18,533 nucleotides of DNA from a virus (taxonomy: Duplodnaviria; Heunggongvirae; Uroviricota; Caudoviricetes): the IMG/VR virus record IMGVR_UViG_2684622582_000009; one strand, given 5' to 3'. The position numbers and the translations under genes were made by a program. Positions 887 to 18,533 of the stretch are shown here, one piece after another (position 1 is the first letter of the stretch; each line of letters begins with the position of its first letter). The notes beneath the pieces were generated by a model. That model had not been told where the DNA came from, searched no databases, and was given only the letters and a program-made list of their open reading frames with translations.

Positions 887-1521
887 TTGTGAGTATCTCA
901 CGTTCTCACTGCGCTGGGCAAAAAAACATCGCAAAATCTGGAGCAGGCACGCAAAACAGAATTGAATGTTGCGGGGAGGAAAAATGCCGCTCTGTTTGAG
1001 TGGGCGGCATTTGTGAAGGCTGAAAAGGAAGAATTGGCGTTACGAGTTGGATCTGTTTGTAGAGTGTTGGCTTCAATGCCGCATTGTGGCTGGTTTCTTT
1101 CTAATGCGGTTTTTGATTATGTACACCCTTATGTACACGGTTTTTTCGGGTGCTTTGGCCAGAAGCCATTGTCTACATCCCTCACGATCGAGGTGTGTAA
1201 CCATGTTCAGGCTTGTTGTCCTGCGCGCGCGTATTGCTCGTGAAATTGCTGTAACCAATAGTGATGTCCGAAAAAACCTCCGTTCTCACATGAAACAGCC
1301 ATGTGCAACTGGTAACTGAATAGACTGGTAGACCGTTCGTTCAGTAAATACCTGATATTTTCGCCAACGAGAAATTGCGTTGGCTGGCAGAGTGCAAATT
1401 TGCACGATGACCTAACCCATTGATTTTTTCGAAAACCTACAATGCAGGAAGCCGGATAACACCATTTTTATAGCTCCGATCCCTTCAAAGTGAGGGGGAA
1501 TTTGCCAAAACAGAGAGAGCA

Positions 1522-1809
1522 TTACTGTCTCTGGCAATCTTTATCGCGATAACGCCTGAAGTACCCTCTCGCTTCCTCATCCATACCAAGAGCCGAATGA
1601 GTCCGCTTAACTGCCTGTCTTAAATCTCCGAATCTGTCTGTAGTTGCTGGTGGGCGTGCCGCCTTACGGATACATTCAGAGCGTCTGTTTGCTGCATGTT
1701 CACGTTCTTTATCGCCATCTGCCAGCATCATGACTTCTGCCCATCGTGCGGCAGCTCTCCGGTATAGCCCTTTTGACTCCAGCTCTTCAGCTTTCCTGTC
1801 CCTTATCAT
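1522..1809 (-). CDS. PerC-family transcriptional regulator-like protein (95 aa)
   Basis: ORF with a GAGAGG Shine-Dalgarno about 5 nt upstream of the ATG at 1809. The N-terminal segment AEELESKGLYRRAAARWAEVM resembles the conserved A-x-x-LE-x-x-G-[LY]-[WY]-RRAA-x-RW signature I recall for PerC/Pch proteins, which are common on E. coli P4-like islands. Confidence 0.55.
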   Translation of the reverse strand: MIRDRKAEELESKGLYRRAAARWAEVMMLADGDKEREHAANRRSECIRKAARPPATTDRFGDLRQAVKRTHSALGMDEEARGYFRRYRDKDCQRQ

Positions 1810-2296: not shown

Positions 2297-3382
2297 ATGA
2301 TTCTCAAAAGCCACCTGTATTCAATGCCTTTGATGGGTTTCATCCATAGTTATTTTCTCGTGACTGACATGGAGATTTTGATTTCAAGGTGTGCAAAAAC
2401 TATCGCAGAGTACAATGGAGCTCAAATGACTGTGGCACCAAAAGATCAAAGTTTGAAATCTGTAAGGGTGGGCTTTTACACAAGCTCTGAGAATATTCGC
2501 ACTAGTAACAAGGGGTTAACCGCAGAGGCCTTTAAAAATCTGTATGATCGGTGTTCTAAAGACTTCAAGATGACCCACTATGCAGACTTTGGTGAAAGAG
2601 AACTTAAAATTCATTTTCTAGACATCTCACCCGAGGATGGCTCCTACTTCGGATTCATGTCTCGAAGAAGAAAAAGCGCAACACTGGCATATATTACAGA
2701 TAAAGAGTGGGTGGAAGAGAAAATCCCTCTAGCCGGGGCAAAGACTCTTTCAGAACGTACATACTTTATTTATTATCCTCAGACAGACATTCTAGTATTG
2801 TCTTTAAATCATTTAGGTCCACGCCATAGTGACTTAGCCTTCCTTCTTTTCAACTCCAGTGATCGCGGAGTCCCTGTTTCTTTTGAAGCCATTTGGAAAG
2901 AAGAAAGCATCAAAGAACTACTCGAAACTGGATCCAATCTAAGAAGCTGCGAGATTTCTGTGGCCATCCCAAGAAACTTCAATGCCGCACAGTATCAACT
3001 CGATGGAATGTTCGCGAATCAGATGATTGAGATGATCAGAGGCACCAGTTCAAGCCACCTGACTATTTCGTTACGCGGACATTCTCCATTAAAAAGAAAA
3101 GCAAAGGGATGGCTTGAGGATGACGTTAAAAAAAGCCTTAAGGAGATGCTAGAAAAGTTCCCTGGTGGTGATGGTCGTTTAACTTTTGAGAAAGCAAATG
3201 TTGTTGCTCAGGGCGATAAAAAGAAGAAAAGTCTTGTAGACGAAGTTCTTACGGTAAAGAAGATGGTGCCTATCCAAGCAGATGGGTATCCGACCGATAC
3301 TGACGTTAAAAATGCTATGCTACAAGCAAAGAATGACAACCTTAGGTATCTAACCCAGTACTATTTGGTTAGTCAAACGTAA
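2297..3382 (+). CDS. Hypothetical protein (361 aa as drawn), first gene of an AT-rich two-gene operon; candidate defence/abortive-infection component
   Basis: Long uninterrupted ORF in visibly AT-rich DNA. Possible starts are ATG 2297 (AGGT about 5 nt upstream) or ATG 2426 (GGAG 5 nt upstream), so the true N-terminus is uncertain. The stop lies 12 nt before the next gene's start. I recognise no family motif by eye. Confidence 0.6.
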   Translation: MILKSHLYSMPLMGFIHSYFLVTDMEILISRCAKTIAEYNGAQMTVAPKDQSLKSVRVGFYTSSENIRTSNKGLTAEAFKNLYDRCSKDFKMTHYADFGERELKIHFLDISPEDGSYFGFMSRRRKSATLAYITDKEWVEEKIPLAGAKTLSERTYFIYYPQTDILVLSLNHLGPRHSDLAFLLFNSSDRGVPVSFEAIWKEESIKELLETGSNLRSCEISVAIPRNFNAAQYQLDGMFANQMIEMIRGTSSSHLTISLRGHSPLKRKAKGWLEDDVKKSLKEMLEKFPGGDGRLTFEKANVVAQGDKKKKSLVDEVLTVKKMVPIQADGYPTDTDVKNAMLQAKNDNLRYLTQYYLVSQT

Positions 3383-3394
3383 CAGGAATACATT

Positions 3395-3832
3395 ATGAGT
3401 TCTCGGAAATTGTTTGCTGCCAAGTCATTGTTTGCTCTAGCTATGGCTATTGCTGGTGCCCATTTTTTACACGACCTAGATCACAATGCTGTCATTTCGG
3501 CTGCTGGTGCTCTTTCAACTATTTCTGGAGTTCTCTTTGGTTTTGTTTTGGCATCAGTCACCATGCTAAGTAGCTTTGATAGTTCAAAGGGAATTGTAGG
3601 CGCTCTAAAAAGTAACGGAGTACTAAAAGGCATTATTGAGGGGCTTTTTGATACAGGAACTACGCTGATCACAGCCTGCCTATTAGCAATGATCTCGATG
3701 TTTGCCCCTGTTGTCAGCAATCTGCCTCTGGATTATTATGCCCTGCTACTCGCAGGGGCATATTTGATTATATCAATGATAACTTTTTTCTTTAACTGGA
3801 AATCTTTATCTAAAATAATAAGTTACATATGA
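3395..3832 (+). CDS. Small integral membrane protein (145 aa, about four predicted TM helices); candidate membrane effector
   Basis: AGGAA Shine-Dalgarno 7 nt upstream of the ATG. Four hydrophobic segments of about 20 to 25 residues (LFAAKSLFALAMAIAGAHFL; AVISAAGALSTISGVLFGFVLASVTMLSSF; TTLITACLLAMISMFAPVV; YYALLLAGAYLIISMITFFFNW). Starts 12 nt after the 361-aa ORF. Confidence 0.7.
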   Translation: MSSRKLFAAKSLFALAMAIAGAHFLHDLDHNAVISAAGALSTISGVLFGFVLASVTMLSSFDSSKGIVGALKSNGVLKGIIEGLFDTGTTLITACLLAMISMFAPVVSNLPLDYYALLLAGAYLIISMITFFFNWKSLSKIISYI

Positions 3833-4664: not shown

Positions 4665-5063
4665 GTGAATCAATTGAAGCGATTGGTTGTCTCCGGTTTA
4701 TTATTTGCTTCTTTTGGAGCGAACGCTGAATGCTGGATTATTGGTGATCTGAAAGGACAAGAAGCCTCAAGTTTAGATGGGTATAACTATAAGTTATCAT
4801 CTATACCAGATACATTTCATTTGGTAATAAGTAAAGAGAAGGCGGATCTTATCTTGGCAAAAGATGGTATAGGTGGAGGTATTGATTATTACCCGCTATC
4901 TCCGAATGCCATGATGGGAAGAAGCTATCGAGATGGTCAACTGACGCTTGTCACATGGGCAATCTCAAATGACGGAAAAGTGATCCATACACGAACAATT
5001 AGTCGATCTGATATAGGCTCATTTACAGGCTCATTTGTCGGCAATGTTAAAGGCAAGTGTTAA
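4665..5063 (+). CDS. Small secreted/periplasmic protein (132 aa from GTG 4665) with a Sec-type signal peptide
   Basis: A strong Shine-Dalgarno AAGGGAGGG (4652..4659) sits 5 nt before the in-frame GTG at 4665, whereas the upstream ATG at 4596 has none. The N-terminus NQLKR-LVVSGLLFASFG-ANA|E has the n/h/c regions and AXA site of a signal peptide. The mature part has a Cys near each end. Confidence 0.55.
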   Translation: MNQLKRLVVSGLLFASFGANAECWIIGDLKGQEASSLDGYNYKLSSIPDTFHLVISKEKADLILAKDGIGGGIDYYPLSPNAMMGRSYRDGQLTLVTWAISNDGKVIHTRTISRSDIGSFTGSFVGNVKGKC

Positions 5064-5124: not shown

Positions 5125-7230
5125 TTATTGAGCTTCCTTTTGCGATGCTTGTGCTGCTGTGGTCAGTGATTGTGTGACCGTACTGATCGCTCTGTCATAT
5201 GCTGTGCTACCTTTTGGCGTATTTGCCAGACGTAACAAGGCATTTCGTATAACAGGGCTTTCGTATGCCTTCGCTGCTCCGCCTACGGAACCAGCAGCAG
5301 GAACAACAAACGCAGCCGTTTTTAGCATCCCCGCTAATACTGCTGCGTTTATGATGCCACCACCAACTAACAATCCATAAAGCTGCTGACCATTTAAGTT
5401 TTGAACGTTCGCTTTTGCCGCGTGTCTTGTATCGTTGAGGTATTTAATAACGCCGTCCAGTTCCTTTCCATGTATGCCTTTAAAGAAAGTTGCTGATTGC
5501 TTCCTGTTCCGGTGTAACGCATTAATAAACTTCTCAACACTGATATTTCCAGACGGATCAGTCGCCTTATCTACAGCATTCTGAACTATGGCTGCTCGTG
5601 CGTTTTGCCTACCATTGTCATCCAGAAGCCTGTAAAGCTGAGAACGTTCTGATGGGCTTTGGCTAAAAACAAGTTTTGTTACATCCTCAGGCGTGGCCTT
5701 GCCGCTGGCTATTGCCTTTTGAACGCGCGTTCTTCCCATCATGTCATTGAATTTAGACCATGAGCGATCAACCCTTGCCATATTAATAGCTTCGTCTGCT
5801 CCAAGATTTTTGGCTACGGCTTTTTTCATATCCGCCGTATATGCCTTGTAGATAATATCGCTGGCTTTCTGGAGCGTATCTTTATCAACAGTGTCAGATG
5901 ACGCCATAAATCGCTTTCGAAGATCGGTTCTGTTTTCCCTCGCCAGACGCAGGTCATTTGGTCCGCTGGTGATATCGTCTTTAAATTGCTGCAAGACTTT
6001 TACCGCGGCTCTATCCTGAGATTTGCCCGGGCGGCTTAACACGGCAATCTGATTGTCGATAGCTTTTACCGTGTTTGAGAGATCGACAGGGGTATCCCCC
6101 ATAGCGTCAATTATGCGGTTATATCGCTTTCCTGCTGCCTCAATGAATTTTTGTTGCCCTTTAGTCGCAGATTCATAAAGCTGTTTATCAGAAATGCCAC
6201 CCAGACCATCGCTAAATGTTCTGACTAAATTTTCTCGTGCTTGTTGTTGATTCAGCCGATTCTTACCGGTTCCAAAAAAAGGAACTCTTTCGCCTAATGT
6301 CTGAGCCTGACTCTGCATAAAGGTTTTATCTTTCAGCATGTCACTGGTCATTAACGGCAGATTTCTTTCCGATGCAAAGTCGACAGCAGCCTTTGCTTCA
6401 GGCGATATATCACCACGAACAGCCCTCGAAACCGCACTCGCTGTATTTTCCAGCCCCTTACCAATACCACCAATGCCAGCAGAAATTACCGTTTGTAACG
6501 GATCAATATCTTCTCCACCAGCGAGGCTGGTGGCTCCCTGTAGTGCTAAATCTGTAGCTGCTGATTTCCCTATGGCCCCCAGCACCGTTCCGGCCCTGCC
6601 CGCTGGTGTAAACGCCAGCGCATTAGCCAGAAACGATGCCACGTCTTGCGGCGATAAACCCGGCTTGTTCAGAGCATAATCACCGGATGGCAGGGAAACG
6701 ATAGTGTTACCCTTCTCATCCTGCCTTAATTTCGCTCCCATGCTCTGAAGAATCTTTTCCTGAGATGCGTCAGAGCCGAAAAGTTGAGACCATCGAGCTT
6801 TTAGAGCATCCATGCTGAGTGAGGTTAACTCTGGGGCAAGGTCGACATTTTGCAGTCTCTCCATCTCTGGAGTCATTCGGCTTTCGCCTGTTATAGCATC
6901 GCGCATCGCAGCCCCAAGACTGGCTCCCTGTTCTGCTGAACGCTCAAGCCCCTCTCTTTGCTGAGTAGCTAACTTTGCATACCCTGACGCAAGAGAATTA
7001 TCAGATGATGTATGTTGAATATTTTGAGTTGCTGATTGGGATCGGTCTATTTCATTCGTTGATGGTAGTGGATAGGCAGCATAAAAAGCCTGCTTAGCCT
7101 GCTCTACACTTTCTCCGGCTTGCGGGGCAACGACTTCATTGAAGTATTGCTCCTGAGCCTGCGCTTTTTGTTCTGGTGCTAACGCCTGATACTGTGGAGA
7201 GGCGATAACATCTTTCCATGCTTTAGCCAT
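5125..7230 (-). CDS. Large hypothetical protein (701 aa), A/Q-rich with a C-terminal glycine-zipper hydrophobic hairpin
   Basis: ORF with a GGGGTGA Shine-Dalgarno. Its ATG overlaps the upstream gene's stop (TAATG at 7228..7232), indicating translational coupling. The C-terminal segment LYGLLVGGGIINAAVLAGMLKTAAFVVPAAGSVGGAAKAY is about 40 hydrophobic, Gly-rich residues. No Walker A or other catalytic motif is recognisable. Confidence 0.75.
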   Translation of the reverse strand: MAKAWKDVIASPQYQALAPEQKAQAQEQYFNEVVAPQAGESVEQAKQAFYAAYPLPSTNEIDRSQSATQNIQHTSSDNSLASGYAKLATQQREGLERSAEQGASLGAAMRDAITGESRMTPEMERLQNVDLAPELTSLSMDALKARWSQLFGSDASQEKILQSMGAKLRQDEKGNTIVSLPSGDYALNKPGLSPQDVASFLANALAFTPAGRAGTVLGAIGKSAATDLALQGATSLAGGEDIDPLQTVISAGIGGIGKGLENTASAVSRAVRGDISPEAKAAVDFASERNLPLMTSDMLKDKTFMQSQAQTLGERVPFFGTGKNRLNQQQARENLVRTFSDGLGGISDKQLYESATKGQQKFIEAAGKRYNRIIDAMGDTPVDLSNTVKAIDNQIAVLSRPGKSQDRAAVKVLQQFKDDITSGPNDLRLARENRTDLRKRFMASSDTVDKDTLQKASDIIYKAYTADMKKAVAKNLGADEAINMARVDRSWSKFNDMMGRTRVQKAIASGKATPEDVTKLVFSQSPSERSQLYRLLDDNGRQNARAAIVQNAVDKATDPSGNISVEKFINALHRNRKQSATFFKGIHGKELDGVIKYLNDTRHAAKANVQNLNGQQLYGLLVGGGIINAAVLAGMLKTAAFVVPAAGSVGGAAKAYESPVIRNALLRLANTPKGSTAYDRAISTVTQSLTTAAQASQKEAQ

Positions 7231-8696
7231 TAATCACCCCATAGTGAAGAAAAGTTACTGCTGGCTGCTGGCTGTGATACCTGCTCAGATTGCGGCAATG
7301 TCTGCGACGAAGAAGCAGTTCCTCTGTCAACTGCTGAAATAACCCGCAAAGCATCATAAGTTCGACCAGAAGCAGCTTTCAGCGAATTGAACTGGTTTTC
7401 CATCTTCCGGCGCTTGGTATCAATGGTTTTTGTGGAGTCGCCAGGCTGAGGGAAATACATTTGATAATATTTTGACATTTCAGCAGGTGCGATAGCTGCC
7501 CCTGTTTCCTGACGGAGTATTGCCATTATTGCGTCATTAGCATTAACAACGTATTGCTGCTCTGCTGGGCTGAGCGTTAAGTTAGCCAGCGTCCCATTAC
7601 CCAAAGCATTATTAATGATCGCCACTCGCTGTGGGCTAAGCTGGTCTTTCAGTGTATCTATTGAATCAAGAGCATCCCTAACCCTGTATGCAAATCCAGC
7701 AGCTTTTTTAGCCCCTTCTGGCGACTTTTCCATGATCTTTTGGGCTGTTGGCAAAGCTATTGGACGAAACCCATCTCCAGATATTGGCTGGTTTAGTTTT
7801 CCCTGCTCTTCACTTCCGTCTGTGTAGTATTTTGTGACAGTGCCATCATCGTTTTCTCTAACACTCATTAATTTTTTGGCGTTTGTATTAATTCCAGCCG
7901 CTGCCGCAAATGCCGCCGCCCCCTCTGGATCCGCCTTTAACATTTGCGCGTACTGATTGTAATTCTGCATTGCGGCTGTTGGTGCATATGCTGACGTTAA
8001 CGCATTTGCTCGGCTAATATCCTGCCCTCTCGCCTGAAGTGCTTCTCCGGCCTGATTGCTGCGGATTGTCTCTGCCAACTTGCCACGCTCAATATCCCGA
8101 CCTTCCATTTGATCTTTGATATCGAAATACTTCTCATGACCGAGAGAAAACAGCGCCAGATTACCTGCGAAATGCTGGAAGCCCTGCGGGTCATTAACCT
8201 GCATTTCAGCAATAGTTTCTGGAGGGATACCTAAACGACGCATCTCCTGCTCATTATCCATCATGAACCTGCCAAATGCGCCCTGACCAAGCGATGAGGC
8301 TACCTGTGCTTTGAGCGCCAGATTGCCATAATCATCCCTTTGAGCATCATCGACATAACTCATCCCTTTACGGACTTCCTCAAACTCTTCTGGGAATGCT
8401 GTAATAAGATTACGCATCTGCTCCCTGTCACCGGACGCATAAGCATCTGCATAACCTTTCTGGAATGCTGCTTTACGCTCCTGCTGTTGCTGCTGCTTAT
8501 AAATATCAGCAACTCCAGCCAGACCACGAAGACCTGTCAGAGCAACGTTATTTGCACCTGAGCGAGCCAGTTCATTGTTTTCGCGGATCAGACCAAGCGT
8601 TGCGTTAATGTCGCTTGCTTTTGGCGCATTCTCATTTTGCGTACCGATGCCAGCCAGAAAACCACCAGAATTAATACCCTGTTGCCACGTAGCCAT
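7230..8696 (-). CDS. Large hypothetical protein (488 aa from ATG 8696; 492 aa if GTG 8708 is used), A/Q-rich, low complexity
   Basis: Long ORF translationally coupled to the 701-aa gene. The track start at 8708 is a GTG overlapping the upstream small gene; the ATG at 8696 (MATWQQG...) lies 4 nt after that gene's stop. Contains a QQQQQ run and many Ala/Gln. Confidence 0.75.
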   Translation of the reverse strand: MATWQQGINSGGFLAGIGTQNENAPKASDINATLGLIRENNELARSGANNVALTGLRGLAGVADIYKQQQQQERKAAFQKGYADAYASGDREQMRNLITAFPEEFEEVRKGMSYVDDAQRDDYGNLALKAQVASSLGQGAFGRFMMDNEQEMRRLGIPPETIAEMQVNDPQGFQHFAGNLALFSLGHEKYFDIKDQMEGRDIERGKLAETIRSNQAGEALQARGQDISRANALTSAYAPTAAMQNYNQYAQMLKADPEGAAAFAAAAGINTNAKKLMSVRENDDGTVTKYYTDGSEEQGKLNQPISGDGFRPIALPTAQKIMEKSPEGAKKAAGFAYRVRDALDSIDTLKDQLSPQRVAIINNALGNGTLANLTLSPAEQQYVVNANDAIMAILRQETGAAIAPAEMSKYYQMYFPQPGDSTKTIDTKRRKMENQFNSLKAASGRTYDALRVISAVDRGTASSSQTLPQSEQVSQPAASSNFSSLWGD

Positions 8697-8700
8697 AAAT

Positions 8701-8874
8701 TTACCCACGTCCAGTTAAAGTGTAAGCCAGCGCCTTATCCATTAATCCCCGAGCAATTTCGTGGATCGTTGGCGCAACTCCTACCTCTGATTTTTTACGC
8801 TGCTCCTCCTGAATTTTCTTTATCGCTTCCATTTGCTTCTCACTTATCAATACTGGCTTTACTGAAATAGCCAT
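8701..8874 (-). CDS. Small protein (57 aa), possible ribbon-helix-helix DNA-binding protein; first gene of the LexA-box operon
   Basis: Not in the ORF track because it is under 60 aa. The ATG at 8874 follows a strong Shine-Dalgarno AAGGGGG. Translation: MAISVKPVLISEKQMEAIKKIQEEQRKKSEVGVAPTIHEIARGLMDKALAYTLTGRG. A beta-strand-like VKPVLIS followed by two helical segments is compatible with an RHH fold, judged by eye only. Confidence 0.5.
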   Translation of the reverse strand: MAISVKPVLISEKQMEAIKKIQEEQRKKSEVGVAPTIHEIARGLMDKALAYTLTGRG

Positions 8875-8889
8875 AACGCCCCCTTAGAA

Positions 8890-8913
8890 CTGTATAAAAC
8901 AACAGTTATTATA
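8890..8913 (-). promoter_or_regulatory. Candidate SOS promoter: LexA box CTGTATAAAACAACAG (8890..8905) directly downstream of a perfect TATAAT -10 (minus strand, 8908..8913)
   Basis: Read directly: CTG-N10-CAG with an AT-rich spacer, flanked as AACTGT...ACAGTT like the dinD box. It sits 16 to 31 nt upstream of the 57-aa gene's ATG, a position typical of LexA operators overlapping the -10/+1 region. The -35 element is weak. Confidence 0.6.
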
Positions 8914-9196
8914 GTTTCACAAATCGCAATATTCATCATCGTAATTGCAAAATATGAAACAAATAGCACAAAAAAATGCCACCGCTCAGTAGCTGGTGGC
9001 ATCGTTCTGTGTGTCAGGTTTTGACAGGTTTTTTATGGACTCTAAAAACTATATTTATGGTGTCGCATTACTCTTCACGGCAGGCGCTTTTCAGTTCTGC
9101 CCTTGCTTCTGGCTCCATTGGTAATTTGATTCGCGATCAGCTATGCGGATGGTTTGCTGAACAGGCATAACAACTTCTCAGAGGCTGTTTTTTGAA

Positions 9197-9272
9197 CTAC
9201 GAAAATTTCGTAGTGCTCACTTTCAAAAACGTCACGCCCTTGTACACAGGATTTTACGAAAGTCTCGTAAAA
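9197..9272. promoter_or_regulatory. Two related palindromes, CTACGAAAATTTCGTAG (9197..9213) and TTTTACGAAAGTCTCGTAAAA (9252..9272); operator-like sites
   Basis: Read directly; both share a TACGAAA half-site and lie about 55 bp apart between the iteron array and the LexA-box promoter. They are AU-rich and lack a following T-tract, so they are unlikely to be terminators. Confidence 0.3.
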
Positions 9273-9322
9273 CACTCTCTGATGCCAGCCAGGTGTTGTG
9301 CGCATCAATTCAGTCACATTGT

Positions 9323-9440
9323 GTTGGTTCAAAATACCGTGTTGTTGGTTCAGTGTTGGTTCAATAAAAAGAATAAAATCCTTATAAAACAATACTCTTT
9401 ACAAATTGAACCAACTGAACCAACTGAACCAACACCTTTT
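9323..9440. repeat. Iteron array B: GTTGGTTCA at 9323..9331, 9344..9352 and 9355..9363, then three tandem TGAACCAAC (9407..9433); mirror image of array A
   Basis: Read directly. Positions 9395..9440 are the exact reverse complement of 1839..1884. The array lies immediately downstream of the primase-helicase gene, consistent with an origin-type alpha-binding site (inference). Confidence 0.7.
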
Positions 9441-9458
9441 CTACGCACATGAAGAAGT

Positions 9459-12215
9459 TCATTCTTCAGATGAGTTATAATCTCCTGGCTGGTAATTGAG
9501 TACATAAACGTTTATTTGTCGTCCCTGAATACGTGGTGATTTTCTTTGGTATCCACGACCGCTGTTTGGTGGGGTTAGCATCCCGGCTTTTTTCAACACT
9601 TCAGCAAACTGTTTTGCGTTGAAACCACATGCGATCTCCTTTTCAAATGTGGCCGGGAATGTGTAGAAAATCATTGGGCTTTCGTCATGTTCTCCACGCT
9701 GACGGTATCCGGCTAAATCTTTGATGGGCAAATCTGCCGGGCTGTATGGAAATGGAGCAAAACGGCTAAGCCCATAGGCATTAAGAAATGCCTCCGTTTG
9801 TTCAATAATCTGCTGATGCTCTTTGTTACCTGTGCCGAACTCGCGCAACCATGCGTTATAGCTGTGCTGTATCGCATCACGGCATGTCTGAGCATCCCAG
9901 CCTGTTACAACCTCGCCTAACAGCAATGCGGCCTCCAGAATGGCAAATCGCGCGGCTACACGGTGAACCTGCTCACCATAATCGGATGGGATCAGACTTC
10001 TCCATCTGCTTTCGCAGTCACGAACAGTTTTAATTGCCTGTTGCTGGTGGTCTGCCAGCCATTTAATCCACTCACGCCCGGCTGCGCCGTGGTGATGCTG
10101 GTAAGCGTCTTTCAGTGCGTCTGCGTGCTGTTTTCCGTTCTGGTAATCGTGAAAGCGTACTGCTTTACTCAACGGAATATTCAGCAGTCGCACCAGTTGC
10201 CCGGCTTTGGTTTTTCGCCCGGAAGTAGCGATAAATGTTTCTAAATCCATTTCTCCGGTGCTGATTGCCACTGTACGCCAGCGTTTTAGATCCCGGTTTC
10301 CACCATCTTTAGCGCCTTGCAGTTTCCCTACACCGTTAAATAACGCATAGGCAGACTGTGAAACACTGACAGGATCAGCGCCCTGACCAACTTCATCAAG
10401 CGGCATTAGTCCGTCATTGTGGGCGGCAGCTTCATTTGCCAGCCCCAGCGCGGTTCCGTACCATGTCAGCCGCAGTAAATCAGGGTTGCCGTATAAGCAG
10501 CTCGCCACGTTTGCCGTGGTGGTCTTACCTGCGCTCGACTGCTCATAGAAATGAATGCCGAACCCGTCAGCGCCCACCAGCCCAATCAATGGCGCTGCCA
10601 GTGCTGCGCCGATCCCGGTCATCATTGAATAGTTACCAAAGGCCAGACGCGCCACGTTATCACGCCAGCTTTTCGCGCTCCCTGAGACGGTATATCCGGC
10701 TGCGGCTGAGCTTCTCCCGCTGAACAGCACAGGATTTTCAGGTGTTCCGATGATTTCCCCATCAGGCATGATGTACGCTCCGCATTGCCAGCCAGTGGCA
10801 TGAGCAACACGCCACAATTCACGAGAGCCACTGCGTTGTAGCCAGTCTGCCAGTATTGCTCTGAGGCTGCTTTTGGTCGTGACATTTACCCCACCAGCTT
10901 TAAGTGTGCGCCATCCTTCACGTTCACCAATATCAGCCAGTGGAATGGCAGCGGTTGTCGGCGTTTCAGAACCAAACGACAGCCAGCGAAGAATGAGATA
11001 CTGGTCTTTATCGTCTCTGCCAGTACCGATAACGCTTAACGGAGAACATAACCAGCTTTCGTTATTGATGATTTCTCCACTCTGGCTGTCAGCTCTCGGA
11101 GATACCCAATAAATACCATCCTCGCGGCTTTCTATTCTTGGTTTCAGTGGGTCGGTATCCATAACCTTAAAATCGCTTCCCTCAATGGTCTGTGGCTCCT
11201 GTTTCACGCCATTACCCTGTGGTTGGTACATTGACTTATTGAACGCTTCTGTGGCGCATTTAATGCCGTGTTTTTGGTGGTAATCATTCCAGTCTGCTTT
11301 GTGATCTGTCGGGGGTAATGCCACCCATCCAGAAACAGATAAAGCTGCCTTTTCTGCTGCTATTCTCCCCGTGTTTTGTCTTACTTCGCTGTGGTCGTTA
11401 TCCGCAGCAATGATGATTTGTGCTGAAGGAAATTTATCCCGCAGTACCTGGGCGACATATAACAGGTTCCCGGCATCAATCGCCGCCACTGTCAGCGCCT
11501 CTGGACGAATTAAATGGGCAGATAATGCCGTTGCCAGCCCTTCTGCGATTAAGATGCTCTGTGTTGTTTCTGGTGCGTTTATGGCGTGATATGCCCCTCG
11601 CTTTGCTGAACCTGTCAGGAGTCTTTTTTCACCATGTGAGGTAATAGTCTGTGCTGCTGTTACTGCGCCGGATTTATCCACCAGCGCCAGCAACAGAGAT
11701 CCATCGGGCAACACGGGGAATGTAAAATCACCTACCCCTTTCGCAACCAGATAATCAGATTTGCCGTTTACAGCCTTTCTGCGCATGTCATCAAACTGAC
11801 GGGAAAACGTATCCCGTCTTTGTTGTTCGTCCTTCTCTGCCCTTTTCAGGCGCTCCTGTTCGCGTCGCTGGCGCTCGGTTTCCAGTTGTTCCCGTTTCTG
11901 GCTGGTGGCTTCTGGTGTTTCCGTTGTCCGGTAATCAATACCCAGAACATCAGCGGCAAGAAGCGCCGCCTCTGTTGTGTCGCAGTTATTTACGCGTTTA
12001 ATTAAATCCAGCCCATCACCAGCGCCGCACTGATTACAGATGAAGCTACCGCGCCCGTTGTCGTCGAACCGGAATCGATCTTTGCCCCCACATGCAGGGC
12101 AGGGAGCATGACGGCGCGGAGAGTCAGGGACATTTATGTTCAGACAGCACAGCACATGAGGCCAGTTGTTTTCAGACGCACTGATAACCTGACGGATAAG
12201 ATCAATGTTTCGCAT
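9459..12215 (-). CDS. P4 alpha-like primase-helicase (918 aa)
   Basis: N-terminal Cys4 zinc ribbon (CPACGG...CNQCG), a TOPRIM-like acidic segment (IIIAADNDH) and a Walker-A-like SSAGKTT in the C-terminal half. GGGGG Shine-Dalgarno upstream of the ATG at 12215. This architecture matches P4 alpha / D5-type primase-helicases as I recall them. Confidence 0.85.
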   Translation of the reverse strand: MRNIDLIRQVISASENNWPHVLCCLNINVPDSPRRHAPCPACGGKDRFRFDDNGRGSFICNQCGAGDGLDLIKRVNNCDTTEAALLAADVLGIDYRTTETPEATSQKREQLETERQRREQERLKRAEKDEQQRRDTFSRQFDDMRRKAVNGKSDYLVAKGVGDFTFPVLPDGSLLLALVDKSGAVTAAQTITSHGEKRLLTGSAKRGAYHAINAPETTQSILIAEGLATALSAHLIRPEALTVAAIDAGNLLYVAQVLRDKFPSAQIIIAADNDHSEVRQNTGRIAAEKAALSVSGWVALPPTDHKADWNDYHQKHGIKCATEAFNKSMYQPQGNGVKQEPQTIEGSDFKVMDTDPLKPRIESREDGIYWVSPRADSQSGEIINNESWLCSPLSVIGTGRDDKDQYLILRWLSFGSETPTTAAIPLADIGEREGWRTLKAGGVNVTTKSSLRAILADWLQRSGSRELWRVAHATGWQCGAYIMPDGEIIGTPENPVLFSGRSSAAAGYTVSGSAKSWRDNVARLAFGNYSMMTGIGAALAAPLIGLVGADGFGIHFYEQSSAGKTTTANVASCLYGNPDLLRLTWYGTALGLANEAAAHNDGLMPLDEVGQGADPVSVSQSAYALFNGVGKLQGAKDGGNRDLKRWRTVAISTGEMDLETFIATSGRKTKAGQLVRLLNIPLSKAVRFHDYQNGKQHADALKDAYQHHHGAAGREWIKWLADHQQQAIKTVRDCESRWRSLIPSDYGEQVHRVAARFAILEAALLLGEVVTGWDAQTCRDAIQHSYNAWLREFGTGNKEHQQIIEQTEAFLNAYGLSRFAPFPYSPADLPIKDLAGYRQRGEHDESPMIFYTFPATFEKEIACGFNAKQFAEVLKKAGMLTPPNSGRGYQRKSPRIQGRQINVYVLNYQPGDYNSSEE

Positions 12216-12227
12216 TCTGGCCCCCGT

Positions 12228-12830
12228 TTAGTGCGTCACTGGTGCTTCTGGGATGCCGTTTTCGTTTAGTTCGGCAATAAAGCTGTTGTGAAGATCGGCA
12301 AGCACTTCTCGCCCAAACGAAGTGAGTGTTCCCTGTTCGACATCGAACATGTTGCTGTAAAAAATGATGGCATTCTTTGTTCCGACATCAACACCATATT
12401 TCTCGATCATTGCGCCCTCAATGTTGTTTGCCATAGCGAGGCGCTCTGCTACTGGATACAGCGGCATGGCGACGATGCCATTGGAATAAACAGAAACCAC
12501 GGAATGATTGCCACTGTCATCAATAATGCTGACGGTGCCGTTTTCCTTTCTCATTTCATTGATGAATGCTGTTGCTATCAGCCAGCGCCACATAATCACG
12601 TGATGCTGTGATGTGTAATCGAAATATCCCTGGTTGCCGCCACTGGCAATAGCGAGATGTATAAACATGCCTTCATCTGGTTTATCGTCATAATCCCCGG
12701 CATCCAGACGATTTACGGCATCAATATATGAGACGGTCTCAACGCGTTCTGTCATGCCATCGTTGCTGCGATACATGATGTTTACGCCGTCAGGCGTTGC
12801 TTCTGCATGGAAAGTTAAGAAATTATTCAT
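12228..12830 (-). CDS. Hypothetical protein (200 aa from ATG 12830)
   Basis: The track ORF extends to 12935, but the ATG at 12830 has a GAGG Shine-Dalgarno and overlaps the stop of the upstream 73-aa gene, so I take 12830 as the start. No family recognised. Confidence 0.6.
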   Translation of the reverse strand: MNNFLTFHAEATPDGVNIMYRSNDGMTERVETVSYIDAVNRLDAGDYDDKPDEGMFIHLAIASGGNQGYFDYTSQHHVIMWRWLIATAFINEMRKENGTVSIIDDSGNHSVVSVYSNGIVAMPLYPVAERLAMANNIEGAMIEKYGVDVGTKNAIIFYSNMFDVEQGTLTSFGREVLADLHNSFIAELNENGIPEAPVTH

Positions 12831-13044
12831 GTTTCGCCTCGCCTGAATGATTCTGTAACTCATATTTGCCCAACAATTCGTCCGCTTCCTGAATAGCTTC
12901 TGGTACGCCATTGAGTAGTGACATAACCGCGCCAATCATTAACTTGTCTCTGTTGCTTGGGCTGGCCCCTTCAAGCCAGAACCCTAAAACAGTCTGAACC
13001 TGTTCGATGCGACATTGCGCTTCAATGAGCTGGATGTTGGTCAT
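12823..13044 (-). CDS. Small hypothetical protein (73 aa), coupled operon member
   Basis: Its ATG at 13044 overlaps the upstream gene's TGA in an ATGA arrangement. Part of a run of tightly coupled small genes upstream of the primase. Confidence 0.5.
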   Translation of the reverse strand: MTNIQLIEAQCRIEQVQTVLGFWLEGASPSNRDKLMIGAVMSLLNGVPEAIQEADELLGKYELQNHSGEAKHE

Positions 13045-13304
13045 TTCGCACTCTCCACATCGATTAAACTGATATCTATCAGGGAGGTAACTTTTTGTAG
13101 CCAGCTATTGATTACTGTCGCCTGTTCCCCTCCCACCGAGGGAATAATCTCATTCATCACATGAACCAGACCTGTGCGCGCTCTGGTAAGCCGTTCAGTC
13201 GCGCAATCTGCGGGAGTGAATGTGTCTGGATATGGCTCTTCACGCCCCAGCAATGATTCAATTTCCAGCTCACACGGATGACGATAAATTAAGTTGATAT
13301 TCAT
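13041..13304 (-). CDS. Small hypothetical protein (87 aa), coupled operon member
   Basis: ATGA start/stop overlap with the upstream gene at 13301..13304. Confidence 0.5.
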   Translation of the reverse strand: MNINLIYRHPCELEIESLLGREEPYPDTFTPADCATERLTRARTGLVHVMNEIIPSVGGEQATVINSWLQKVTSLIDISLIDVESAK

Positions 13305-13495
13305 TTTTCACCCCCAAGAATTACCAGCTCGGCACGGGCATCGTTAACCAAAGATGAGCACGCTTTAATCGCATCCACGACATCAGCAGCGTCCATTTCT
13401 TCAGCCGAAAGACTGACAGCAACCAGGACAGCCGCTGCTTGCTCGATTAATTGAAGTGCGGACGTAAGGCGAGGGGTATTAATTGAGTTATTCAT
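13301..13495 (-). CDS. Small hypothetical protein (64 aa from ATG 13495; [10 protein letters not shown]...)
   Basis: The ATG at 13495 overlaps the upstream gene's stop region (CCAATGAATAA). The track's longer 83-aa version would overlap the upstream gene extensively. Confidence 0.5.
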   Translation of the reverse strand: MNNSINTPRLTSALQLIEQAAAVLVAVSLSAEEMDAADVVDAIKACSSLVNDARAELVILGGEK

Positions 13496-13706
13496 TGGTT
13501 GCCCCCGTTTTGCATGGCATTTGTCCACCTTCCAGCAGGAAATGAACGTCACGAACGGCGAGATCCAATATCGCGAGTAACGCCTTCAGTTTTTCATCTC
13601 GTGAGGGAGAGTTGCTTGCCAGAATGTCGTTAATCACTTCTGTCAGTGTGATGATCTGGCTTGTGCGTTCGAGGGGATCCATATGCACATCGTAGGTTTT
13701 AATCAT
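13488..13706 (-). CDS. Small hypothetical protein (72 aa from ATG 13706; [15 protein letters not shown]...), in frame with and nested in the 355-aa ORF
   Basis: A strong Shine-Dalgarno GGAGGTGG lies immediately upstream of the ATG at 13706. The C-terminal part looks protein-like, whereas the middle of the 355-aa ORF does not. Confidence 0.45.
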   Translation of the reverse strand: MIKTYDVHMDPLERTSQIITLTEVINDILASNSPSRDEKLKALLAILDLAVRDVHFLLEGGQMPCKTGATNE

Positions 13707-14555
13707 GTGCCACCTCCATGCGGATACGACCAGCAAAAAAGCAGACGTGATCGCGCACCAGAGAAAGGCGAGCATCGCGTTCAGACTCGGCAGCAATATG
13801 ATGAATTTTGGCGGTAATTGTCGGGCAATCGCGGCGAACTGCGGCGATAATCCAGATAAATTGCGGTTTTTGGGTAGGGGTAGTAGCCAGCATGTGGCAG
13901 CCTCCTTCAGATAGCAGGTTACGCTACCACCGGAAACGCCAATTTCGCTGGTGGTAGCCCAGACAGGGTTGGCGTAACCGGCTCTGAAGGATACCGGCGC
14001 TTCCGAAGAAGCCCCCGCCTGAGCCACCATTGATTGACAAGGGCGCTGGATTATACACCAACGCCCAAAAAATGGGTGAGTCAGACCTACGACATAAAAA
14101 AAGACGCTCGGCGCGTCATATGTCGCCTTCAGAATTTTCAGGACGCCAATCCCGGCACCCGTTTTATGAGGTGCCTTATAACCATAAACCGTGTTGCCGC
14201 ATAACGGCAAGCTCTTTTTTATGGACTCCGAAAACTCACTATTGGAAGCACCAGATGCACAATACATCGCGCTTATTTCGTTAACGTCACGCGCGTGGAC
14301 GAAGGTTTTTGTGGAGTCACTACACGAGCAGAACAGGTCATCTACGACCAGAAATTCTCTGGCGCAGCCGCTGACCTTCTCAACGCTAACATCATCGACC
14401 GTAATTTCTGACATAGTTAAGGCATCCGCTCCTACCACCAGCAAATGATAAACTTTGCTTGTATCTGCTGTATTAATGCCTGACTTTGCCGCCATATTGC
14501 TGTATTTTGGCGACATGCCAGCCAGTGAAAATATCTTCTTCTGGACGGGTATCAT
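13488..14555 (-). CDS. 355-aa ORF of uncertain reality (possibly a genuine N-terminal gene plus read-through, or a region with non-coding function)
   Basis: The start at 14555 has a GGAGG Shine-Dalgarno and ATGA coupling to the upstream 59-aa gene, so translation probably initiates here. The central 150 or so residues are rich in W, C and P and look like a non-coding frame, and several opposite-strand ORFs overlap. Confidence 0.3.
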
Positions 14556-14731
14556 TGGTTAACCTCCGTAAACTCCTTCATGAAACGCGCCAGCGGTTGT
14601 ACGCATGGCGATTGATACCCGTCGCGATAAAACGTCACTCGGTTGTGAGACACGCTTTCGACAGTAACGAGTGCTCCGTGGGCATCTTTGTAGCGTTTTT
14701 GAGGTTGTGGTGTTCCTGTTGGCTTAGACAT
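14552..14731 (-). CDS. Small hypothetical protein (59 aa; MSKPTGTPQPQKRYKDAHG...)
   Basis: The ATG at 14731 overlaps the antirepressor stop (ATGTCTAA). The track's 88-aa version would overlap the antirepressor gene by about 90 nt. Confidence 0.45.
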   Translation of the reverse strand: MSKPTGTPQPQKRYKDAHGALVTVESVSHNRVTFYRDGYQSPCVQPLARFMKEFTEVNQ

Positions 14732-15557
14732 TGACCGCCTCCAGACGCTTGGCGAGCCAGCGTTGCGACAGGCGGGTGAGTTCTCCTTTGCGCTGCTCAT
14801 ATTCCATGCCCATATCAATTAACGTGATATTGGTGCTTTCGAGATATGAGAGGTGCTCAAGTTGTTCTGCGTTCATATGGTCGCGAGGTTCGCCAGAATA
14901 GCCATTTATCCGCGCCCACTGCTTAGCAGTTAGCCCACCAAGAACGATACGAGAAATCATATTGCTCTCGTTTGTGTAGTGGTGTTGCTGCGTCGTTTTC
15001 CCCTGCTCGGCACGGGCCATATTCAGCGCATCGCACATTGGCTTAAAGTTGTTTGCGGCACTGAGACGGGCTTTTAGCTGGCGACGATAGCGGGCGGCGA
15101 TTTCAGGCACGCTACGCTGTAATTCTTCCTCGCACTGGATGAAATAACGACGGATAGCGCGACCCTGATCATTGCGTTCGATCATTGCCAGTTCTTTCGC
15201 CATTCCGACACTTAACAGATAGTCTTTACTGGGTCTGCCAGAGTGCTTAATCTTGCTGTAAGCCGCGCTATTCGGGCTTTTCCCCAAATTTGGGGAAATA
15301 GTTTTATGGACTGAGTAATCGTGCCCAATGGTGAAGTCATATTCAGAGATGCGATCAGTGATCCATGTAGAGAAGTCTTTTCCCACTCCCAACGCTTTGT
15401 GTAACGCTTTTGCGCTAACAATATTGGTTTCACGCCCACCTATATGACCAGAAATAACCGGGACAATTGCGGCAAATTCATTACCGTTAATTGTGCCCAG
15501 AGAGGCGTTCAGATGAGGGGCGGCCTCAGAAATTAATCTGCTTTTTTCGATGTTCAT
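14724..15557 (-). CDS. Phage antirepressor, AntA/Ant-type (277 aa)
   Basis: The N-terminal region (NIVSAKALHKALGVGKDFSTWITDRISEYDFTIGHDY) resembles the AntA-type antirepressor N-domain, and the central segment SVGMAKELAMIERNDQGRAIRRYFIQCEEEL resembles the antirepressor C-terminal region, both from recall. Confidence 0.7.
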   Translation of the reverse strand: MNIEKSRLISEAAPHLNASLGTINGNEFAAIVPVISGHIGGRETNIVSAKALHKALGVGKDFSTWITDRISEYDFTIGHDYSVHKTISPNLGKSPNSAAYSKIKHSGRPSKDYLLSVGMAKELAMIERNDQGRAIRRYFIQCEEELQRSVPEIAARYRRQLKARLSAANNFKPMCDALNMARAEQGKTTQQHHYTNESNMISRIVLGGLTAKQWARINGYSGEPRDHMNAEQLEHLSYLESTNITLIDMGMEYEQRKGELTRLSQRWLAKRLEAVNV

Positions 15558-15569
15558 TTTCAGTCTCCG

Positions 15570-16001
15570 TTAGGCGGCGTTAAACGCGTCCGGGTAGAGT
15601 TTCAGAATGTCGGCAATTTCCTGCTGAGAAAGTCCGTTGTGATCATTTATGTTCGCAAGATGGTTAACATGAGTGATCACTTTCAGAACATCACCACGGC
15701 AGGAGAAACGGTAGCGAAGGTGTGTTCCGATACCATCAGGATTCTTTTCGTCGATACGCTCCAGAGTGATTCCAAGCTGGCGTTCTAACTCTGTTGCATA
15801 GTTACGACCAGAAGACAGACGGCAGTAGCGAAGAATGTCATTTTCTGTCCATCCCTCTATACCAGTACGCAGCATATAGACTCGGGCACGATGCTTTTTC
15901 GGTGTGCGCTTTGGTGCTTGAAGGGATTTTGTAAGGGGCGTAATATCAGATACGCGAATATCTGAATTAGCCGCCTGTAATGGGCGGTTTTTCTTTTCCA
16001 T
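15570..16001 (-). CDS. Hypothetical protein (143 aa), coupled to alpA
   Basis: ATGA overlap with the alpA stop at 15999..16003. Basic N-terminus; no family recognised. Confidence 0.6.
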   Translation of the reverse strand: MEKKNRPLQAANSDIRVSDITPLTKSLQAPKRTPKKHRARVYMLRTGIEGWTENDILRYCRLSSGRNYATELERQLGITLERIDEKNPDGIGTHLRYRFSCRGDVLKVITHVNHLANINDHNGLSQQEIADILKLYPDAFNAA

Positions 16002-16204
16002 CAGGCCACCTTCCCGCGGCGTTCTGCCAGCCAGTTGTGAATCTCAACCGCATCAAACGCAGTTATTTTTTCTCCCAGCTTTACCGGACGTGGTAGTGAA
16101 CCGTTTCTTACTTTACGGTCGATGGTGGATACACTAACGCCCAGCAATTCAGCCAGGCGAAAGCGTCTGATATAGCCTTTTGTAGGGATAGTGTCGATGT
16201 TCAT
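16001..16204 (-). CDS. alpA: AlpA-family (phage Vis-like) transcriptional regulator (67 aa)
   Basis: The segment RLAELLGVSVSTIDRKVRNGSLPRPVKLGEKITAFDAVEIHNWL fits the AlpA helix-turn-helix pattern (L-x-E-x-x-G-x-S-x-STI-x-R ... P-x-P-V-K-L-G ... W) as I recall it. Its position just downstream of the integrase region is typical for P4-like and PICI elements. Confidence 0.8.
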   Translation of the reverse strand: MNIDTIPTKGYIRRFRLAELLGVSVSTIDRKVRNGSLPRPVKLGEKITAFDAVEIHNWLAERRGKVA

Positions 16205-17279: not shown

Positions 17280-18533
17280 TCATGCTCTGATTGGCGTTAC
17301 GTTGTAGTCTTTTCCGCTTTCCAGTGCCACCAGCAGATCTGCCCACTGTGCCAGTGCTGCTTTACGCTCATCAAAATACTGATGACGGTTATAAATCCCC
17401 TCTACGCCCTTAATGCGATGATTGAGGCATCGTTCCGCCACGACAGGATCAACACCCAATGCTGCTAAATGAGTACGTGCGGTGCGTCGGAAGTCGTGAA
17501 TCGTGAAATTAGGCACATCCGGCATTTCGGCGCGAACCTTAGCCAGTGCTACGGGTAAAGTGCTTTCCTGAATATGTGGGATCATTCTGTTTTGCATCTT
17601 CCTGGCCGGAAGCACCCATGCGCTATTACATGAAAAGGTGTGTAGCTCTCTCAACCATTCAGCGGCTGGGGAAGGTAGAGGTATATCAATAGGGTCTCCG
17701 TTTTTGCTGCGTTCTTCCGGCAAATGCCATACCGCACCATCTAAATCAAACTCTTCCCATCGTGCGGCGCATAACTCCATCTTACGAACGCATAGTGCCA
17801 GCAATAGTTTAAATGTCAGTTCGTTTTGGCGGCTGAATCCTTTTGCGGTGCGCATAGCCTCGAATAGCCTGATAAGCTCATCGCGAGTTAGCCAACGGTC
17901 GCGGGAAACCTCTTTACCACCAGCATCAGATACTTCAAACGCTGAACAAGGGTTTATCTCCAGAGCGTGGCGTTTTATCCCATAGTCAAAGATACGGCGT
18001 GTCCAGCGTAATACATCTGTTGCTATCGTTGGTGCTCCTCGGTCAACGATACCTTTCAACATGTCGTCAATGTGGCGTGGCTTAACGTCCTCTACCTTCA
18101 TATGCCCAATGCAGGGGTTAATATCCTTATCAATTCTCCGGCGAAGGATATCGGGATGTTTCCATCTCGGAAGTATCTGGCGCTCGAAGTATTCGGAGGC
18201 CAGATCTGAAACACGCATGGCGTTTTTCTCAGCCTCCATTTTTGCCAGTGCTTCAGCTTTTCGTTCCTGTTTCTCTGCTGCTACGTCATAGCCAAGAGCA
18301 ACTCTGGCTGACAGCTCTTTTGCTGTTTCTCTGGCTTTTGATAGTGACAGTTCGGAGTAAGAGCCTATAACCATAGCCCGCTGCTTTCCTGCGAGCTTAT
18401 AGCGGAATCGCCAGAACGGGACTGTGTAGTTTTTGGGGTAGCAAATATAAAGGCCGTTGCCGTCTGCCTTGCCATCAAATCTGTCTCCCGCCTTTATCCA
18501 TGCGCGGATCTGCATATCTGTGAGTTTTGGCAT
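17280..18533 (-). CDS. int: P4-type tyrosine integrase (417 aa; complete, start codon is the last three bases of the window)
   Basis: The C-terminal catalytic region has HDFRRT (His-x-x-Arg) and IYNRHQY (candidate Tyr nucleophile), characteristic of tyrosine recombinases. The N-terminus (GLYICYPKNYTVPFWRFRYKLAGKQRAMVIGSY) resembles the P4-type integrase arm-binding domain, from recall. Confidence 0.9.
   Translation of the reverse strand: MPKLTDMQIRAWIKAGDRFDGKADGNGLYICYPKNYTVPFWRFRYKLAGKQRAMVIGSYSELSLSKARETAKELSARVALGYDVAAEKQERKAEALAKMEAEKNAMRVSDLASEYFERQILPRWKHPDILRRRIDKDINPCIGHMKVEDVKPRHIDDMLKGIVDRGAPTIATDVLRWTRRIFDYGIKRHALEINPCSAFEVSDAGGKEVSRDRWLTRDELIRLFEAMRTAKGFSRQNELTFKLLLALCVRKMELCAARWEEFDLDGAVWHLPEERSKNGDPIDIPLPSPAAEWLRELHTFSCNSAWVLPARKMQNRMIPHIQESTLPVALAKVRAEMPDVPNFTIHDFRRTARTHLAALGVDPVVAERCLNHRIKGVEGIYNRHQYFDERKAALAQWADLLVALESGKDYNVTPIRA

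Follow-up and report, generated by a model that had tools for sequence, protein, structure and literature searches.

An intact gp20-gp16 ejection-protein cassette of the P22 type behind a predicted SOS promoter in a chromosomal satellite of Escherichia coli

Introduction

It has been reported that gp16 of phage P22 associates with membranes, and its presumed place is the inner membrane (PMC10461980). Superinfection exclusion of the SieA type works through gp16 and gp20, and mutations that escape SieA arise in exactly these two proteins (PMC10461980). In phage T7, gp16 is the largest ejected protein, carries putative membrane helices at its C-terminus and forms the inner-membrane end of the ejectosome (PMC8954989). 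Here we describe a homologue of P22 gp16, 701 amino acids (aa) long and encoded together with a gp20 homologue, on a chromosomal satellite of Escherichia coli. The two genes lie in an 18,533-nt stretch of viral DNA (IMG/VR record IMGVR_UViG_2684622582_000009), which was analysed at its full length and is called the window below.

The satellites known so far appropriate capsids, tails or the specificity of packaging. The described satellite closest to this locus is EcCIMP1, a phage-inducible chromosomal island (PICI) of E. coli MP1 (Pick, Stadel and Raivio, ISME J 2025, PMC11773190), which circularises only in the presence of the P22-like phage Kapi1 and is transduced by Kapi1 at a low rate (PMC11773190). 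A further precedent is operon I of the staphylococcal pathogenicity islands (SaPIs), which is LexA-controlled according to Ubeda 2007 as cited in PMC6739421. Weighing the evidence given below, we favour, at a probability of roughly 0.6, the reading that gp20 and gp16 are produced from the satellite's own genes upon SOS and helper induction, that both proteins are carried in helper capsids, and that they are ejected in the next infection, with a hydrophobic hairpin of gp16 placed at the inner membrane.

Results and Discussion

The 701-aa protein belongs to the P22 gp16 family

The gene under study and its N-terminal module are placed as follows.
5125..7230, minus strand: DNA ejection protein (E-protein) of the P22 gp16 family, 701 aa (PHROG 770, BLASTP, homologues labelled PF26808)
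7069..7230, minus strand: HK620-type N-terminal module of gp16, codons for residues 1-54 (74% identity to residues 1-54 of HK620 gp16)

The listing of open reading frames (ORFs) and the translation give an uninterrupted frame from ATG to stop. An earlier note on this DNA had described an alanine- and glutamine-rich 701-aa protein here, giving no strand; the gene is real, it lies on the minus strand, and the composition agrees (Ala 14.1%, Gln 7.1%, with 18 Ala and 14 Gln within residues 1-100). The PHROG 770 profile ('DNA transfer protein') matches residues 19-700 at profile positions 3-667/668 with an E-value of 7.7e-162. In BLASTP comparisons the protein is 30% identical to P22-type gp16 (E 2.7e-52), 68% identical to ORF13 of phage N7 and 93% identical to gp16 of a complete P22-like prophage (L023), in which the gene comes after gp7 and gp20. 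A tblastn search with the protein matched 163 of 50,697 phage records, nearly all of them P22-like podoviruses (Lederbergvirus) and their relatives, including P22, ST64T, Sf6, the APSE phages and N7 (67.5%). In the contigs that were inspected, homologues at 70-93% identity reside in virion modules that are complete (portal, scaffold, coat, gp4, gp10, gp26, gp14, gp7, gp20, gp16), and an exhaustive phmmer search found 1400 gp16-family clusters in the 50% library. The local Pfam and NCBIfam collections gave no match to the protein; PF26808 (Phage_P22_gp16) is the precomputed label on all of its close database homologues, and its absence from the local result is explained by the model being newer than that Pfam copy.

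The likeness to P22 gp16, Sf6 gp13, HK620 gp16 and N7 ORF13 (PF26808 / PHROG 770) runs nearly from end to end. It extends to the position right after gene 20 with coupled translation, to the C-terminal motifs GQ ... YES..RN.LL.LANT, which bracket a Gly/Ala-rich hydrophobic segment, and to a mosaic pattern with a swappable N-terminal module. The island protein differs from these relatives in its combination of an HK620-type N-terminus with a body of the N7/L023 type; beyond residue 54 it has no HK620-like sequence, and the HK620-type block of the cassette consists of these 54 residues and the C-terminal tail of gp20. It differs also in its origin, a satellite without gp7, gp14, portal, coat or tail genes. 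The other virion genes of a P22-like block (portal, coat, gp4/10/26, gp14, gp7) are absent from the window, where gp20 and gp16 stand alone. The internal core proteins of podoviruses, T7 gp16 among them, are functional analogues; T7 gp16 itself (1318 aa, with an N-terminal transglycosylase domain) has no detectable sequence similarity to the island protein. With a profile match, a match to P22 gp16 itself and a gene 20 homologue next to it, we concluded from homology that the 701-aa protein is an ordinary member of a known ejection-protein family. Of the two ideas raised in the earlier note, the injected or virion-internal protein was the right one.

gp20 and gp16 form an operon behind a LexA box

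Upstream of gp16, the following features were assigned.
7230..8696, minus strand: ejection protein of the P22 gp20 family, 488 aa from the ATG (PF16928, PHROG 917)
8701..8874, minus strand: first ORF of the operon, 57 aa, a backbone gene of the satellite (annotated in sibling islands as a hypothetical protein)
8890..8905, minus strand: predicted LexA (SOS) box CTGTTGTTTTATACAG, a match to CTGT-N8-ACAG
8908..8913, minus strand: -10 hexamer TATAAT of the putative operon promoter, read by eye from the sequence
8970..8993, minus strand: intrinsic terminator-like hairpin with a T-run, between the origin and the operon promoter

The gp20 homologue matches PF16928 (Inj_translocase) over residues 16-232 with an E-value of 1.6e-83, and PHROG 917 as well. 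Its stop codon overlaps the gp16 start (TAATG) at 7230, and we read gp16 as translationally coupled to gp20. Over its N-terminal 234 aa it shares 52-58% identity with gp20s of phages, its centre is closest to the APSE phages (best long match among the 50,697 phage records 51.5%, over residues 50-455), and its C-terminal tail FSSLWGD is that of HK620 gp20, a pattern that we take as a mosaic allele. The 57-aa ORF in front has no match in Pfam, PHROG or NCBIfam and is 87% identical to a 53-aa ORF of EcCIMP1. The breakpoint between the two cassette types falls in the 3' end of the 57-aa ORF, which is the reason for the shorter EcCIMP1 version. From reading its sequence, we guess that it is perhaps a small DNA-binding fold of the ribbon-helix-helix kind. 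Whether gp7 could be hidden in the 750-bp gap upstream of the operon was considered and rejected, as the gap is taken up by the origin iterons, the terminator, the promoter and the 57-aa ORF.

The LexA box lies 2 nt downstream of the perfect -10 hexamer and 15 nt upstream of the 57-aa ORF. Two matches to CTGT-N8-ACAG occur in the 18.5-kb window against 0.18 expected. Box and -10 hexamer are unchanged in all of 8 further loci, though the surrounding promoter has several substitutions. The SOS clue on which the earlier note had drawn is therefore in the sequence, and LexA control of the operon is predicted. The second match (871-886, CTGTATATAAACACAG, minus strand) is the box of the core gene dinD and lies outside the island. 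As in SaPI operon I, a satellite operon with an SOS box and with genes related to the helper virion follows the replication module; the SaPI operon encodes TerS and proteins that redirect capsid size, whereas the island operon encodes ejection proteins, there is no sequence relationship between the two, and LexA control in the island is a prediction.

The island is a satellite of the EcCIMP1 family

The remaining parts of the satellite backbone and the chromosomal flank are listed here.
17280..18533, minus strand: tyrosine integrase, a satellite gene that adjoins yicC in the chromosome
16001..16204, minus strand: AlpA-family regulator (PF05930, E 2.2e-8)
9459..12215, minus strand: primase/replicase with zinc ribbon, Toprim and DUF927 (98.5% nucleotide identity to the EcCIMP1 primase region)
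9321..9435, no strand assigned: probable replication origin, with three GTTGGTTCA iterons and three inverted copies TGAACCAAC
1522..1809, minus strand: PerC-family regulator (PF06069, E 2.6e-33)
1044..1064, no strand assigned: left island end with a degenerate copy of the attachment (att) core, from comparison with a circular record (L027) and strain TB354
1-837: core gene dinD, chromosomal flank

The window is devoid of capsid, tail and lysis genes. Read along the minus strand it presents the integrase; AlpA; an AntA-type antirepressor, a DUF4222 protein and an Ash-family protein; the primase; the operon; three cargo genes; PerC, which in Gram-negative PICIs is typically the distal gene (PMC11773190); and dinD. 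An integrase, AlpA, a primase/replicase with an adjacent origin, a size within about 10-20 kb and no structural or lysis gene are together the marks of a PICI, and the island shows all of them. In the presumed origin the iterons surround a 40-bp AT-rich spacer directly after the primase stop codon, and the region is nearly fully conserved in four island variants; the arrangement is typical of satellite origins, and it is probably where the satellite replicates from.

In blastn comparison with EcCIMP1, window positions 8726-12215 are 98.5% identical and positions 12230-16011 are 93.9% identical. The shared backbone (94-98% identity) extends from the AlpA gene through the primase, the origin and the promoter with its LexA box to the small ORF, and both islands have a PerC gene at the far end and ejection-protein genes in the slot that follows the primase. 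They differ in their integrase, in their attachment site, which is the yicC 3' end here and a tRNA-Thr gene at proA/yagU there, and in the content of the slot. EcCIMP1 (L029 5981-11327) has gp14 (PF11039, DUF2824), gp7 (PF25688), gp20 (PF16928) and a 906-aa gp16 protein with an SLT domain and a phrog_770 match, whereas the present island has gp20, the 701-aa gp16 and a Hex-family gene; the two gp20 proteins are only 26% identical, and the accessory genes differ. The yicC/dinD island of strain 4750 (L028 3803-8971) carries the same complete four-gene cassette type as EcCIMP1. Judged by this comparison, the island is a PICI of the EcCIMP1 family, a satellite family described in 2025.

The island is about 18 kb long and is integrated at the 3' end of yicC; in annotated genomes it is flanked by yicC on one side and by dinD on the other. 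The 21-bp att core CAGATTCAGAATATCGAATAA, defined from the circular record and TB354, overlaps the yicC stop codon and is found also at 28257-28277 of the TB354 record (L001). In the left copy of the window (1044-1064) about 11 bp are missing (GAGTTGGATCTG, compared to GAGTTATTCGATGTTGAATCTG in TB354), and the right end falls outside the window. The circular record (NZ_CP148430.1, L027) is a sibling island deposited as plasmid pZ1323CEC0013_1-4, a closed circle of 12,152 bp joined at the 21-bp core. Its junction is as site-specific excision would give, and the circle looks like an excised satellite caught by the assembly.

Two cargo genes occupy a variable slot, one at 2297-3382 (plus strand) for a 361-aa protein (phrog_7651), the other at 3395-3832 (plus strand) for a hydrophobic 145-aa protein that is probably membrane-spanning (phrog_8552). 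In this slot the sibling island of TB354 has an Abi-family gene and that of T309.Ta3 an ImmA/IrrE pair. The two genes gave no Pfam, NCBIfam or PADLOC match and could represent an undescribed anti-phage system.

The cassette is kept intact on different satellite backbones

The exact gp20 protein is found in 25 contigs, which reduce to 8 distinct contexts. All are PICIs; three types of integrase and att site and two kinds of primase (DUF927, and DUF5906 in the locus L040) are represented, and all have the order 57-aa ORF, gp20, 701-aa gp16 and a 145-aa secreted protein. In L040 (5735-8086) the same module of promoter, 57-aa ORF, gp20, gp16 and secreted protein is joined to a 783-aa DUF5906 primase; replication and ejection modules are exchanged independently. 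The cassette of the window type, together with the origin, occurs in 301 of 5426 complete E. coli genomes (~5%), and the EcCIMP1-type cassette in 72 complete E. coli genomes. An intact gp16 of 701 aa is encoded in all 8 further loci, and of the 15 listed members of its cluster 14 are intact. The PGAP label for the TB354 copy (L001 14916-16731, 'P22-gp16 family phage DNA ejection protein, missing C-terminus'), which would make it a pseudogene, was rejected as an apparent annotation artefact, because the ORF translates to an intact 701 aa.

Between the window and the T309.Ta3 island, the ratio of non-synonymous to synonymous substitution rates (dN/dS) is 0.18 for gp16 (80 synonymous and 50 non-synonymous differences; dS 0.18) and 0.09 for gp20. 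A dN/dS of 0.18 was obtained also between the window gp16 and the prophage gp16. The two-gene cassette is intact and under purifying selection. These numbers bear on the idea that the cassette is a recently captured fragment of a P22-like prophage, functionless for the satellite and hitch-hiking with the island. Such a remnant would account for the absence of gp7, of gp14 and of every structural gene; mosaicism is strong among P22-like genomes, and in the 12,152-bp sibling circle gp20 is truncated and gp16 deleted. A functionless fragment is hard to reconcile with the intact frames and the low dN/dS values, as a dS of 0.18 between island copies of gp16 means that there was time enough to decay. 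The same cassette is moreover joined to different integrases and primases, a second and complete cassette sits in the same slot of EcCIMP1, and the gp20 allele is without a close counterpart among the phage records searched. We therefore give this explanation little credence.

A hydrophobic segment near the C-terminus of gp16

One further feature lies within gp16.
5269..5385, minus strand: Gly/Ala-rich hydrophobic segment, codons for residues 616-654 (Kyte-Doolittle, alignment of 43 homologues)

The earlier note had pointed to a single strongly hydrophobic region of about 40 residues some 50 residues from the C-terminus, and this description holds. The segment QLYGLLVGGGIINAAVLAGMLKTAAFVVPAAGSVGGAAK (residues 616-654, 41% Gly+Ala) ends 47 residues from the C-terminus, and the only 19-residue windows with a Kyte-Doolittle mean above 1.5 are those starting at 617-631 (maximum 1.79), the next-best window being 0.95 at 200-218. 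Two hydrophobic halves are parted by K637-T638. In the 43-sequence alignment the segment is preceded by the nearly invariant G614 and the invariant Q615, is followed by the invariant Y656-E657-S658 and has a polar or Pro-containing turn in its middle. The aligned segment is the hydropathy maximum of the whole chain in 43 of 43 homologues (median 1.38, range 1.15-1.86, 33-47% Gly+Ala), which makes it more than a chance feature, and the gp16 proteins of bona fide prophages have a segment of the same sequence type. A C-terminal putative membrane segment as described for gp16-like proteins (PMC8954989) is thus present in the island protein by hydropathy. The segment is only moderately hydrophobic, and we call it a putative membrane hairpin. 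SieA-escape mutations of P22 gp16 are known at G532 and P546 (PMC10461980); in the alignment G532 corresponds to G614 and P546 to K637 of the island protein, that is, to the start and the turn of the segment. This mapping of the SieA-escape residues onto the hydrophobic hairpin is our own inference.

AlphaFold2, run with the 43-sequence alignment, models the protein as almost all helical, with a mean predicted local distance difference test (pLDDT) score of 66 and 374 of the 701 residues at or above 70. Residues 280-600 form helices with pLDDT mostly at 75-90, and low confidence is limited to residues 57-107, 192-271 (a second, weaker Gly/Ala-rich region) and 608-652, with pLDDT below 50 across the hydrophobic segment. 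The disordered body proposed in the earlier note was not seen in this model. Foldseek with the model gave no match in the PDB at E <= 0.001, and a sequence search of the PDB revealed no relative and nothing else meaningful. Among viral predicted structures (BFVD), 58 matches at E <= 0.001 were found, including 'Injection protein' and transglycosylase-headed internal proteins. The comparison with colicin pore domains that the note had suggested came out negative (Pfam, PDB sequence and Foldseek against the PDB).

The other idea of the earlier note was an SOS-induced, membrane-inserting, bacteriocin-like toxin with the convergent secreted protein next door as its protective partner. Pore-forming colicins indeed are preceded by an SOS box and contain a hydrophobic helical hairpin close to the C-terminus; the island has a LexA box ahead of the operon, a predicted hairpin in the corresponding place and a secreted neighbour that always accompanies the cassette. 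The island gp16 shares neither sequence nor fold with them: a Pfam scan showed no colicin or pore domain, and full-length homology joins the protein to phage ejection proteins instead. Colicin pore immunity proteins are integral inner-membrane proteins. No such protein goes with the cassette, the window has no lysis or release gene, and the neighbour belongs to a periplasmic family (Hex / Sf6 gp38) that is found beside cI genes without any gene 16. The toxin with a cognate protective protein is left unsupported; homology largely refutes it, and we consider it extremely improbable.

The convergent neighbour and the question of exclusion

Downstream of gp16 and convergent with it lies the neighbouring gene.
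4665..5063, plus strand: secreted protein, 132 aa, of the phage 434 Hex / Sf6 gp38 family (PHROG 2651, E 5e-22)

The most likely start is the GTG at 4665, which has a good ribosome-binding site, and the protein has a predicted signal peptide that ends in ...FGANA and is followed by ECW; in this respect the earlier note, which had spoken of a convergent secreted protein, was accurate. The protein is 31% identical to 434 Hex (E 8e-20) and 33% identical to Emek orf129 / Sf6 gp38, and a member of the family follows gp16 in 10 of 10 sibling islands examined. In phages 434, HK446, Sf6 and Sf101 the homologue adjoins the cI repressor gene, far from gene 16, and in Emek it is convergent after gene 16 as in the island. 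Because homologues occur both beside cI without gene 16 and after gene 16, we regard the neighbour as an accessory gene of the moron type. In all the P22-like elements compared, the slot after gene 16 holds a gene for a small envelope protein, namely SieA in P22, HkcB in HK620, the secreted Kapi1_059 in Kapi1 and a lipoprotein-like 232-aa protein in EcCIMP1; the island gene has the position of sieA in P22. By position the neighbour is perhaps related to exclusion; a partnership with gp16 is not demonstrated. 434 Hex is reported to inhibit the RecA-stimulated cleavage of the 434 and P22 repressors (PMC3564112), an activity that sits oddly with the signal peptide predicted on the homologues.

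Exclusion could also be the task of the cassette itself. Produced at low levels or upon SOS, gp20 and gp16 might act in the carrier cell, as decoys or dominant-negative partners that disturb the conduits of incoming P22-like phages at the inner membrane or through abortive infection, and so serve in superinfection exclusion or defence. In lysogens, EcCIMP1 contributes additional immunity to superinfection by its helper, and PADLOC and DefenseFinder detected no known system in it (PMC11773190); in the present island, no PADLOC model matches any gene of the cassette or the cargo; and the dependence of SieA-type exclusion on gp16 and gp20 (PMC10461980) would fit as well. On the other side, the two proteins are without a signal peptide, while incoming E-proteins arrive from the periplasmic side, and a LexA-repressed promoter would keep their levels low in the uninduced cells that need protection. 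The gp16 body is 93% identical to that of a functional prophage gp16, with a dN/dS of ~0.18 both between islands and between island and prophage, and the role is better assigned to the envelope proteins whose genes directly follow gene 16. Taken together, we find an exclusion function of gp20 and gp16 unlikely.

A proposed role in DNA delivery

The sections above show the family of the two proteins, their operon, the satellite around it, its conservation and the purifying selection on it. When the operon would be expressed, how its products would come into virions and what the hairpin would do, we infer as follows for a satellite that supplies its own ejection proteins. DNA damage would cleave LexA and induce a resident P22-like helper prophage, and the operon would then be expressed. 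The satellite gp20 and gp16 would enter procapsids built by the helper, replacing or joining the helper copies, with gp14 and gp7 provided by the helper. At the next adsorption both proteins would be ejected; gp20 would lengthen the periplasmic tube, gp16 would complete the inner-membrane conduit, and the DNA would enter. The Gly/Ala-rich hairpin at the C-terminus of gp16 would be the part that meets the inner membrane and the exclusion protein SieA.

Several points weigh against this proposal. The cassette is without gp7 and gp14 and therefore cannot build a conduit alone, and the presence of satellite-encoded E-proteins in virions is a proposal. The -35 element of the putative promoter is weak (3/6), and a scan for the sigma-70 consensus called no full promoter at the LexA box. 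The P22 segment that corresponds to the hairpin is weakly hydrophobic (0.73, against 1.79 in the island gp16), and according to Perez et al. (cited in PMC10461980) P22 gp16 does not need residues 476-609 to associate with membranes in vitro, so that the hairpin is not the sole membrane determinant. In the related system, EcCIMP1 leaves the titres of its helper unchanged and its rate of transduction is low, a Kapi1-like prophage is present in only 2 of 21 EcCIMP1 strains, and the authors suggest a packaging role for the ejection-type genes (PMC11773190). Finally, with its damaged left att core this copy of the island may no longer be mobile.

The protein itself is little news, as its family is curated and NCBI records already use the name 'injection protein': the exact 701-aa sequence is WP_053294599.1, and many of the 2417 sequences in its 90% cluster bear that name. 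What is of more weight is that a common E. coli satellite keeps a two-gene ejection cassette behind a predicted SOS promoter and that a sister satellite keeps a different one of four genes. A supply of DNA-delivery proteins by the satellite would be a further kind of satellite-helper interaction, and it would give a genetic handle on how P22 gp16 and gp20 make contact with the inner membrane and with SieA. The alignment of the SieA-escape residues with the hairpin offers a directly testable prediction. A tentative extension, to which we attach low confidence, is that the exchangeable ejection cassettes are an entry device, in that a divergent gp20 and gp16 of its own, loaded into helper capsids, would make the satellite particles insensitive to SieA-type exclusion or fit for other hosts. 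If this is true, the satellite would gain by entering lysogens of the helper, whose SieA-type exclusion blocks injection via gp16 and gp20, and the hydrophobic hairpin at the C-terminus of gp16 would be the specificity element.

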